Source: Escherichia coli (GTDB lineage: Bacteria; Pseudomonadota; Gammaproteobacteria; Enterobacterales; Enterobacteriaceae). Taken from it: a stretch of 64,000 nucleotides of DNA. Within the stretch, counting starts at the first letter, position 1. Each line of letters opens with the position of its first letter. Where the stretch lies: NCBI RefSeq assembly GCF_003334815.1, contig NZ_QOWO01000007.1. One strand, given 5' to 3'. This document shows positions 20,426 to 23,933 of this stretch, one piece after another. Below the pieces are notes generated by a model that was not told where the DNA came from, searched no databases, and saw nothing but the letters and a program-made list of their open reading frames with translations. The translations under genes were made by a program, and so were the position numbers.

Positions 20426-20624
20426 GATGCATATCCTCCGGTTAACAGCGGAGTCCGCGGTTAAATAAAAGGAACAACATGACTTACATGAAATTAACGG
20501 CGGCTAAACGCATTGTTTTTTTTATATATTTATTTGTAATCCAGTTTTGGAAAAACGCCAGTTTTCAAACGAAAGTCAGTTAAAAAATCTGCCTGGATAT
20601 AACGAAGGTAGAGCGGGGAAATAA

Positions 20625-22662: not shown

Positions 22663-23790
22663 TTAATATGTCTCACCCAACGCGATTTTTAAGCGATTTA
22701 TCCAGCCACACAGCCCGCTCCATACCAGCAGATTAATAATCTGCGTTGATGATTTTTCGTGTTCGAGTAAAGGGCTGAACTGGGCGGCGCTAAAGCGATC
22801 GGGTGCTCGGGTCAGCCATTGTATCGCCTGAACGGTAGCGCGCTCAACAGAATGACGGTCAGCCCATTGGTTAATTTCATTTTCGCCCTTGCGCATAAGG
22901 GTGCTGATTTTTTTATATTCATTTGATGAATCCATACAGGTGGCAAAACAAGCAGGACTGCCATTTATACGCGCGCATAACAACGCCGCAAGCTGATTAT
23001 CCGGCTGTGTATTGCCCCGTGTGCTGTTTAACAACTTTTCGAGAAGGGAAAGTGAAATAGGGTGGAGAGAGAGTATTTCGGCCAGTTGGCAAAGTTCTGC
23101 AGTTGAACTTTTTGTGTGCTCTTCAGGTAGTTTTTCCACCTCATAGCTGCTTCGCCAGCGTAATGATTCATCAGCAAACAGTGACGCGTCGGCGTAGTTT
23201 TGTATCTCCAGCCCGGGTAACCAGCGTACCGGATGCCCGAGATAAGCCTGAAATGTCGCAATTGTCCGCGCCTGAAAGCCAATAAAACCAATGATTTGGC
23301 TAATGATCACACAGTCCCAGGCAGTAAGACCGACGTCATTCAGATGCTGGCGCGATCGGTTGTCGATAATAGAAGGCGAGCTAGCCAGTTGGCGGGCATA
23401 TTGCGTGATTTGTGCCAACCGATGATTACTTTCCCTGGTGGAATCAGGCCCGGGGAGCGGCGTAAGTCGCGCCGAATAGTAGTTACATAACCGCTGGACG
23501 CCGCAAACCTGAGCAACCGTCAGGGCCGTCGACAAGCGTTCATAAGCGGTGAAGGTCTGTGAACGGGTCACGGTAAGCTGGTCAGGGAACAAATCCACTG
23601 CAAGAACACGCGCAGGGTCCAGCCATGAAAGGAAGGGGGCCAGCGTTTCTTTTTCAAGGATCACGTCGAGTAGAAAGGGATCGCTGACCTTTGCGGCTTC
23701 CGGGACCAGAGGCAGAACGTCATACTCCGTAGTACTGGATTGCGTTTCATGATACCAGTGGCTTTTGCCGGTGATGTGGCGTTGTTCCAT
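22663..23790 (-). CDS. yciW: Uncharacterized AhpD/carboxymuconolactone-decarboxylase-like protein YciW
   Basis: 375 aa from MEQRHITGK; the ORF track continues 26 codons further upstream. Confidence 0.82.
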
Positions 23791-23895
23791 GGGCGCTCCT
23801 TGGTCGTAAAGGAAATCGTTATCCTGACGCAAGGCGGGAAGGGGAGAAAGACGGATCGGCGATAACAAATATCAGAAAGGTATAACAGAGATAAC

Positions 23896-23914
23896 GGGCG
23901 GCAGAACGCCGCCC
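23896..23914 (-). terminator. Probable fabI terminator hairpin
   Basis: GGGCGGC-agaac-GCCGCCC stem-loop 20 bp 3' of fabI stop. Confidence 0.5.
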
Positions 23915-23933
23915 ATCTTTACCAACAGAACGA

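Follow-up and report, generated by a model that had tools for sequence, protein, structure and literature searches.

A fused AhpD-fold protein of the Escherichia coli sulfur-starvation regulon: YciW, its predicted CysB-type promoter, and an invariant cysteine outside the canonical AhpD motif

The yciW gene lies at positions 22663..23790 of a 64,000-nucleotide stretch of Escherichia coli DNA (RefSeq assembly GCF_003334815.1, contig NZ_QOWO01000007.1), referred to here as the window; all yciW features discussed below are on its minus strand. YciW is a cytoplasmic protein in which two AhpD-fold domains are joined in the manner of Sestrin2. Sequence conservation and published expression data indicate that the gene is transcribed separately from its own CysB-type promoter and that it belongs to the sulfur-starvation regulon. 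Relative to distant two-domain relatives, the YciW clade appears to have reversed the roles of its domains, with the motif of the C-terminal domain decayed and an invariant cysteine, Cys102, gained in the N-terminal domain. Our preferred reading, which we hold tentatively and at slightly less than an even chance, is that YciW lowers free cysteine as a thiol-based enzyme, with Cys102 as its reactive residue. The gene, its regulation by CysB, the cysteine phenotype of its mutant, and the likeness of the protein to Sestrin have already been published. In the literature searched we did not find quantitative promoter evidence, the correction given below of which cysteines matter, the reversal of catalytic and non-catalytic domains, the high evolutionary rate, or the link between the N-terminus and protein instability.

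The fold assignment requires profiles. A Pfam scan of YciW returns no match at E≤10, including to the carboxymuconolactone decarboxylase (CMD) family (PF02627) and to Sestrin PA26, and a single-sequence search of the PDB finds only 2oyo (E 0.88). The NCBIfam matches are all below threshold: the 'peroxidase-related' model TIGR01926 (43.1 bits; cut-off 81.8) and TIGR04030 fall on residues 250–373, and TIGR04029 ('CMD_Avi_7170') falls on residues 118–178. TIGR04029 and TIGR04030 occur in the right order, at 36 and 31 bits (cut-offs 100.75 and 233), and a graded series of scores joins E. coli YciW to relatives whose scores lie near or above threshold. When profiles are used, the C-terminal half matches the AhpD-like structures 2oyo, 3c1l, and 6k40 at E = 2.7e-14 to 1e-12, while the N-terminal half matches the same proteins at 2e-5 in a region restricted to the last two helices; the two halves also match one another weakly (86% probability). 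YciW thus has the all-helical AhpD fold and consists of a single chain of two AhpD-like domains related by a pseudo-twofold, as in Sestrins.

The N-terminal AhpD-fold domain (residues ~28–200; 23191..23709) is the most constrained part of the protein, and is followed by a variable linker (residues 201–260; 23011..23190) with the lowest conservation, 0.40–0.50. The C-terminal AhpD-fold domain (residues 261–375; 22666..23010) is of the 'peroxidase-related' type, as defined by the PDB profile and TIGR01926, and carries a decayed motif. We classify YciW as a divergent variant of the AhpD-like, fused CMD/peroxidase-related kind and do not place it among the AhpD enzymes, because the motif that defines them was looked for and is absent. 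An earlier annotation made from the letters of the window (the sequence-only reading) had labeled YciW 'AhpD-like'; that label conceals the absence of the canonical AhpD catalytic motif, and the protein is a fused double domain of Sestrin type instead of a single one.

The Glu...CxxCxxxH centre is absent from both domains. In the C-terminal domain, alignment to 2oyo identifies a CxxCxxxH remnant, S278-P-A-C281-F-A-T-C285 (22936..22959), in which Ser278 occupies the position of the first Cys and Cys281 that of the second. Residue counts were made over 82 YciW orthologues: Ser278 and Cys281 each occur in 80/82, the residue at 285 varies, and the upstream position of the proton-relay Glu is not conserved. 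The N-terminal domain has V98...C102, which is out of register with the motif. Cys102 (codon TGT, 23485..23487) is invariant (82/82) and is the proposed reactive thiol; Tyr105 is likewise found in all 82 sequences and His104 in 78 of them, the codon of the latter (23479–23481) specifying Tyr in all four Escherichia compared (E. coli, E. albertii, and two cryptic-clade genomes). The complete set of invariant N-domain residues is Y83, R85, Q94, C102, Y105, R119, N122, R124, and R133. Based on the helix boundaries of the structural model, G97/V98 would correspond to G277/S278, which would place Cys102 one residue beyond the canonical second Cys, Tyr105 at the His position, and Glu/Asp84 at the position of the proton-relay Glu. 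A review has based 'C-x5-C' and 'C-x8-C' spacings on Cys96 and Cys285 of YciW; both residues are variable across the orthologues.

Distant two-domain relatives have the opposite distribution of conserved residues, in which the C-domain motif RA(D/E)RE...NGCxYCASVH is intact and position 102 of the N-domain is Ala, Thr, or Ile. Decay of the C-domain is graded: TIGR01926 scores are 205–229 bits in the distant relatives, 131–137 in deep members of the YciW clade, 50 in Citrobacter, and 43 in E. coli (cut-off 81.8). One deep member of the clade still carries NGCLFCAGIH, and nearly every member retains a thiol at 278 or 281. The motif evidence does not support the database labels 'peroxidase' and 'decarboxylase'. 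We also considered an Fe-S cluster protein, an idea that arose because Fe-S proteins are enriched among fast-turnover proteins, and rejected it: only Cys102 is invariant and Cys281 nearly so, while C96, C285, and other cysteines vary.

The region upstream of yciW was compared across 24 loci (23 Enterobacterales genera or species and one metagenome contig). The spacer alignment contains a footprint of ~45 bp, TATAnnnnTTnnGnTATTTnTTATCACnnnnCAnTCTTT, followed by an invariant AGGAT and then by AAGGA-N5-8-ATG. In the window this corresponds to a predicted 42-bp CysB-binding block, GTTATACCTTTCTGATATTTGTTATCGCCGATCCGTCTTTCT (23845..23886; ~-72..-31), supported by the phylogenetic footprint and by a position matrix, and to a predicted -10 element, CAGGAT (23821..23826), whose AGGAT is invariant or nearly so in the 24 loci. 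A weak -35 element, TTTCTC (23844..23849), is predicted from the sequence 17 nt upstream of the -10 and lies within a conserved TCTTT block; transcription would start near 23814. A sigma-70 consensus scan did not detect this -35, as is expected for an activator-dependent promoter.

The position matrix was built from the 42-bp yciW block and used to scan both strands of two MG1655 stretches, L090 and L091 (43 kb). The cysJ promoter ranks first in L091, with a score of 16.3 (z 5.7) against -1.9 for the runner-up, and the cysD promoter ranks fifth; in L090 the cysP and cysK promoters rank second and third. All four matches are in the orientation of the gene, 115–147 nt upstream of the ATG, and by a rough estimate the chance of 4/10 top matches falling within ~600 of 86,000 positions is ~5e-7. 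The cysJ site, GTTAGTCGATTTGGTTATTAGTTATCGCTATCCCGTCTTTAA, is identical to the yciW block at ~28/42 positions. These results agree with a CysB motif at the yciW -35 region, 'similar to that of cysJ', attributed to Kawano 2015 in PMC10821248, and with published co-expression. Across 1035 transcriptomes yciW falls in the same independent component as cysJIH, cysDNC, cysPUWA, cysK, tsuAB, and tcyP; in a Salmonella mutant it shows some of the strongest induction of any cysteine-regulon gene; and nine antibiotic classes induce it 6–18-fold, alongside tcyP, tsuA, and cysK. Expression profiling, which the sequence-only reading had suggested as a check, has already been published and places yciW with the cys genes.

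Upstream of the predicted promoter, the fabI-yciW gap (23791–23933, 143 nt) contains a terminator-like hairpin assigned to fabI (23893..23917). Its core stem-loop, GGGCGGC-GUUCU-GCCGCCC, spans 23914–23896 and is followed by the tail GUUAUCUCUGUUAUA; two more pairs extend the stem to 23917–23893. The hairpin folds at -19.5 kcal/mol (z = -3.5 against shuffles) and is flagged by a terminator scan that overall is not enriched (3 sites against 3.2 expected from shuffles). G+C-rich hairpins occur at the same place after fabI in other genera. The upstream neighbor, fabI (enoyl-ACP reductase, 23934..24722, minus strand), has a stop codon that ends at 23934 and is a separate transcription unit with the same direction as yciW. 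We reject an operon of the two genes on the strength of the terminator between them, the promoter that yciW has to itself, and its cys-type expression.

The open reading frame runs from an ATG at 23790 to a TAA stop at 22665–22663 (375 aa and stop codon), preceded by a Shine-Dalgarno sequence, AAGGAG (23796..23801), 5 nt upstream of the ATG, of which AAGGA is kept in nearly all aligned loci. The DNA is that of E. coli K-12: the 1.6 kb surrounding the gene is 100% identical to MG1655, and RefSeq annotates fabI - yciW - rnb here, with yciW as a 'carboxymuconolactone decarboxylase family protein'. A 401-aa version that starts from TTG at 23868 appears in some of the literature. We reject this start because it lies inside the promoter and because all 82 orthologues open with MEQ... 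at the position equivalent to 23790. The gene assignment, the 143-bp co-directional spacing from fabI, the hairpin at 23896–23914, and a probable separate promoter had each been put forward in the sequence-only reading, and each agrees with the present analysis, the hairpin to the nucleotide and the promoter through the conserved 42-bp block and weak -35/-10 pair found after the hairpin. The claim that no activity had been assigned also stands, as the yciW literature searched yielded regulation and phenotype only, and searches on its function, on the TIGR families, and on AhpD-like proteins in sulfur starvation gave nothing decisive; no peroxidase or AhpC-reducing assay of YciW turned up in that literature.

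Several further features of the intergenic regions were observed. In most non-Escherichia genera the yciW leader is ~40 nt longer (L006–L081, e.g. L008:6918–7000), and its segment from the -10 to the Shine-Dalgarno sequence includes a stem-loop, GATCCGG ... CCGGATC, with a consensus of 7 pairs and compensatory changes in 4. It is not found in Escherichia or Pluralibacter (window 23791–23826), and its absence accounts for spacers of 143 bp there against ~200 bp elsewhere. Rfam searches of the intergenic region and of one Citrobacter leader returned chance-level matches only; the stem-loop perhaps acts in mRNA stability or as a regulatory leader. On the other side of fabI, the gap between ycjD and fabI (24830–25088) contains a G+C-rich, repeat-like stretch with CCCCTCGCCCCTCTGGGGAGAGGGTTAGGGTGAGGGGAAAAGCGCCCCCC; a similar string, GGGAGAGGGTTGGGGAGAGGG, occurs in the fabI-yciW spacer of locus L076, and the stretch looks like a dispersed intergenic repeat. 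The ycjD gene itself (DUF559; 25089–25442) separates sapF from fabI in K-12 and in a single cryptic Escherichia genome, where it is 89% identical, and was not detected in any other of the loci L002–L081 having both sapF and fabI. The scan gave a single sigma-70-like site, TTGAGC-18-TACAAT (22818–22847, minus strand). It is embedded in the 3'-terminal part of yciW and, at ~220 nt before the rnb start codon, could serve as a promoter for rnb. Finally, the rnb-pdeR spacer (L001:6518–6622; window ~20480–20590) contains a RefSeq-annotated hypothetical protein of 34 aa, WP_000221855.1, encoded on the other strand from its two flanking genes.

The N-terminal peptide of YciW (codons 1–19, starting MEQRR; 23734..23790) is conserved across the clade and absent from the distant two-domain relatives. 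Third codon positions within it vary, so the constraint is on the protein sequence. It is predicted to be disordered, with pLDDT < 50 for residues 1–22/24 in both models, even with a deeper alignment. YciW is also among the 24 fastest-turnover E. coli proteins (PMC11246515); in the source data of that study its total half-life is 1.2–1.3 h, compared with ~5–6 h for stable proteins, and it is only partly stabilised, to ~2 h, in a protease mutant. The N-terminal motif may be a degron or a partner-binding peptide. Because the peptide is both conserved and disordered and the half-life is ~1.3 h, the level of YciW may also be controlled by proteolysis or by a partner.

YciW has a narrow distribution. 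Only 178 relatives turned up among the 1.84 billion cluster representatives searched, and the family proper is confined to Enterobacterales; the genome-contig scan covers the closest 80 (Enterobacteriaceae) of 261 confirmed matches, and the taxonomic edge of the clade is judged from the other searches. Nearly all Enterobacterales loci with flank included have the gene order fabI-yciW-rnb, and orthologues of 37–40% identity also follow sapABCDF-fabI. Within this conserved neighborhood yciW evolves ~10–30x faster than its neighbors while remaining under purifying selection. YciW is 78–80% identical to its counterparts in E. albertii and cryptic Escherichia, compared with 99–100% for FabI and 98–99% for RNase II; against Citrobacter the values are ~59%, 97%, and 91%, respectively. 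Overall dN/dS is 0.16–0.18 for yciW and 0.00–0.02 for fabI, rnb, and sapF. The constraint is concentrated in the N-domain, where dN/dS within Escherichia is 0.05–0.08, compared with 0.28–0.41 in the C-domain and 0.30–0.43 in the linker, and where mean column identity is 62%, compared with 39% in the C-domain.

The gene is present in 5421/5426 complete E. coli genomes. This presence, with a dN/dS of ~0.17, rules out a pseudogene or an unconstrained gene in E. coli. Individual lineages have lost it: in Escherichia sp. MOD1-EC7003 (L005:7150–7160) a 70-bp frameshifting deletion has removed codons ~51–74 and left a pseudogene whose promoter and remaining sequence are still ~95% identical to K-12; a nonsense mutation is reported to be fixed in LT2-like lineages of S. 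Typhimurium; and many Shigella and Salmonella database entries of YciW are truncated.

Based on these observations, we propose the following model for YciW. Under sulfur limitation, CysB would bind the 42-bp site just past the fabI terminator and activate the weak yciW promoter, so that yciW would rise together with the genes of cysteine biosynthesis and sulfur uptake. Cys102 would be the reactive thiol of an enzyme of the thiol-disulfide or sulfur-transfer type, and either the thiol left in the C-domain (278 or 281) or glutathione would regenerate it. The enzyme may act on a small anionic sulfur metabolite linked to the pool of free cysteine, and YciW would drain or detoxify excess cysteine while the CysB regulon is on. 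This cysteine-draining model fits the phenotype of the yciW mutant, which is cysteine-hypersensitive and produces more cysteine (Kawano et al. 2015, as summarized in PMC10821248).

Several points weigh against this proposal. The substrate is a guess, and the phenotypes fit a regulatory role equally well. Distant relatives without Cys102 conserve R85, R119, R124, and R133 as well, so these arginines may be structural instead of substrate-binding. His104, which is nearly universal in the orthologues, is Tyr in Escherichia itself. Three members of the YciW clade lack a thiol at both 278 and 281, and one has Ser at 102. The function is also dispensable, since the gene is broken in MOD1-EC7003 and in LT2 relatives and truncated in Shigella and Salmonella entries.

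The main rival to a thiol enzyme is a non-catalytic, Sestrin-like sensor or adaptor that binds a sulfur amino acid or precursor (cysteine, homocysteine, O- or N-acetylserine), in which the N-terminal peptide would restrain cysteine synthesis or uptake via a partner and the short half-life would make the signal transient. We consider this unlikely on balance. The decayed catalytic motif, the conserved and disordered N-terminal motif, and the company of the regulators Cbl, IscR, and Fnr among the 24 fastest-turnover proteins are all consistent with such a role, and loss of a brake on cysteine accumulation would account for both published phenotypes. However, an invariant Cys beside His/Tyr, combined with an acidic residue where AhpD has its proton relay, has the look of a catalytic site; no partner has been described, and the conserved neighbors fabI and rnb are functionally unrelated and suggest none; and the Pfam scan gave no PA26 signal. 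We regard as improbable a related scenario of active-site migration within a fused AhpD pseudo-dimer, in which the C-domain lost its catalytic CxxC while the formerly non-catalytic N-domain gained an invariant Cys/His site and the conserved disordered N-terminal motif. The outcome could be a bacterial protein that, like Sestrin, senses or handles cysteine or homocysteine and tunes the free-cysteine pool. If this scenario is correct, CysB would control a prokaryotic counterpart of the amino-acid sensing that Sestrins perform on an AhpD scaffold.

Three further alternatives draw on database names or gene position. The fold and the names 'putative peroxidase' and 'peroxidase-related' suggest a classical AhpD-type alkylhydroperoxidase, or a peroxiredoxin reductant, acting against the peroxide stress of cystine import and high cysteine. 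Cysteine overload promotes oxidative damage, and the cysteine sensitivity of the mutant would fit. This is quite improbable: both domains lack the Glu...CxxCxxxH centre, the domain that once bore it is under relaxed constraint, the gene is co-expressed with cys genes, the higher cysteine yield of the mutant is left unexplained, and E. coli reduces AhpC with AhpF. A role for YciW in fatty-acid or acyl-thioester metabolism, through joint action or co-transcription with FabI, is very improbable. Although the genes are adjacent in nearly all Enterobacterales loci with flank included and in the orthologues of 37–40% identity, and a BAAT/acyl-CoA-thioesterase-like gene is fused to, or overlaps, that of some distant relatives, fabI and yciW are separated by a strong hairpin and a conserved activator-dependent promoter, yciW expression tracks cys and not fab genes, and fabI is nearly invariant while yciW evolves 10–30x faster. 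The adjacency alone is weak evidence, as the whole sapABCDF-fabI-yciW-rnb block is syntenic. We give almost no credence to the activity implied by the RefSeq product name, gamma-carboxymuconolactone decarboxylase: the genomes examined have no protocatechuate-pathway neighbors (sapABCDF, fabI, rnb, and pdeR occur instead), Pfam CMD does not match, the nearest sequence and structure matches belong to the peroxidase-related branch and not to PcaC, and regulation follows sulfur status.

Few members of the well-studied E. coli cysteine regulon still lack a biochemical function; YciW is one, and its deletion is already used for raising industrial cysteine yields; its function, once known, would close a gap in how enteric bacteria hold toxic free cysteine low. 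The true start and promoter, Cys102, the remnant thiol Cys281, and the disordered N-terminal motif, which may explain the very short half-life, provide handles for experiments.

Among known systems, the classical CysB promoters (cysJIH, cysK, cysP, cysDNC) resemble that of yciW in having a ~40-bp A+T-rich activator site that abuts a poor -35; they differ in that the yciW site is predicted from sequence and a reported motif match. The proteins most like YciW in architecture are fused CMD_Avi_7170 and peroxidase-related (perox_Avi_7169/TIGR01926) proteins of Burkholderiales, Pseudomonas, and others (e.g. P0129, P0135, P0139), which share its domain order and length (~360–400 aa), align over the full length at 21–29% identity, and, like YciW, have invariant R85, P139, P192, and G277. 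Unlike YciW, they contain E...NGCxYCASVH in the C-domain, lack a Cys at 102, and lack the MEQRR..HWYHETQ N-terminus. Their contexts are also unrelated: a flavin monooxygenase operon, or a BAAT-like hydrolase together with an ABC transporter of the peptide type; we therefore rejected gene-context inference from distant homologues, as such heterogeneous contexts are not transferable to YciW. Some two-domain relatives are fused to a BAAT/acyl-CoA-thioesterase-like hydrolase or overlap its gene by 4 nt (P0136, 847 aa; L087:6661–9143; AFDB A0A0S4TUQ9), and in L087 a LysR regulator and an ABC transporter of the peptide type precede the pair. This association may be a functional lead for the distant-relative branch.

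Human Sestrin2 (PDB 5cuf, 5dj4, 5t0n) has the same two-domain arrangement at 10–13% identity to YciW, which has no PA26 match and differs in being bacterial, without a GATOR2 pathway. The invariant Cys102 of the YciW N-domain would be a putative counterpart, at most, of Sestrin2 Cys125. With respect to AhpD of M. tuberculosis (1gu9) and the AhpD-like proteins 2oyo, 3c1l, and 6k40, YciW lacks the Glu/CxxC/His centre, has Ser for the first Cys and variable residues at the His and Glu positions, and instead has its conserved cysteine, Cys102, in the N-domain, shifted by one residue from the motif register.

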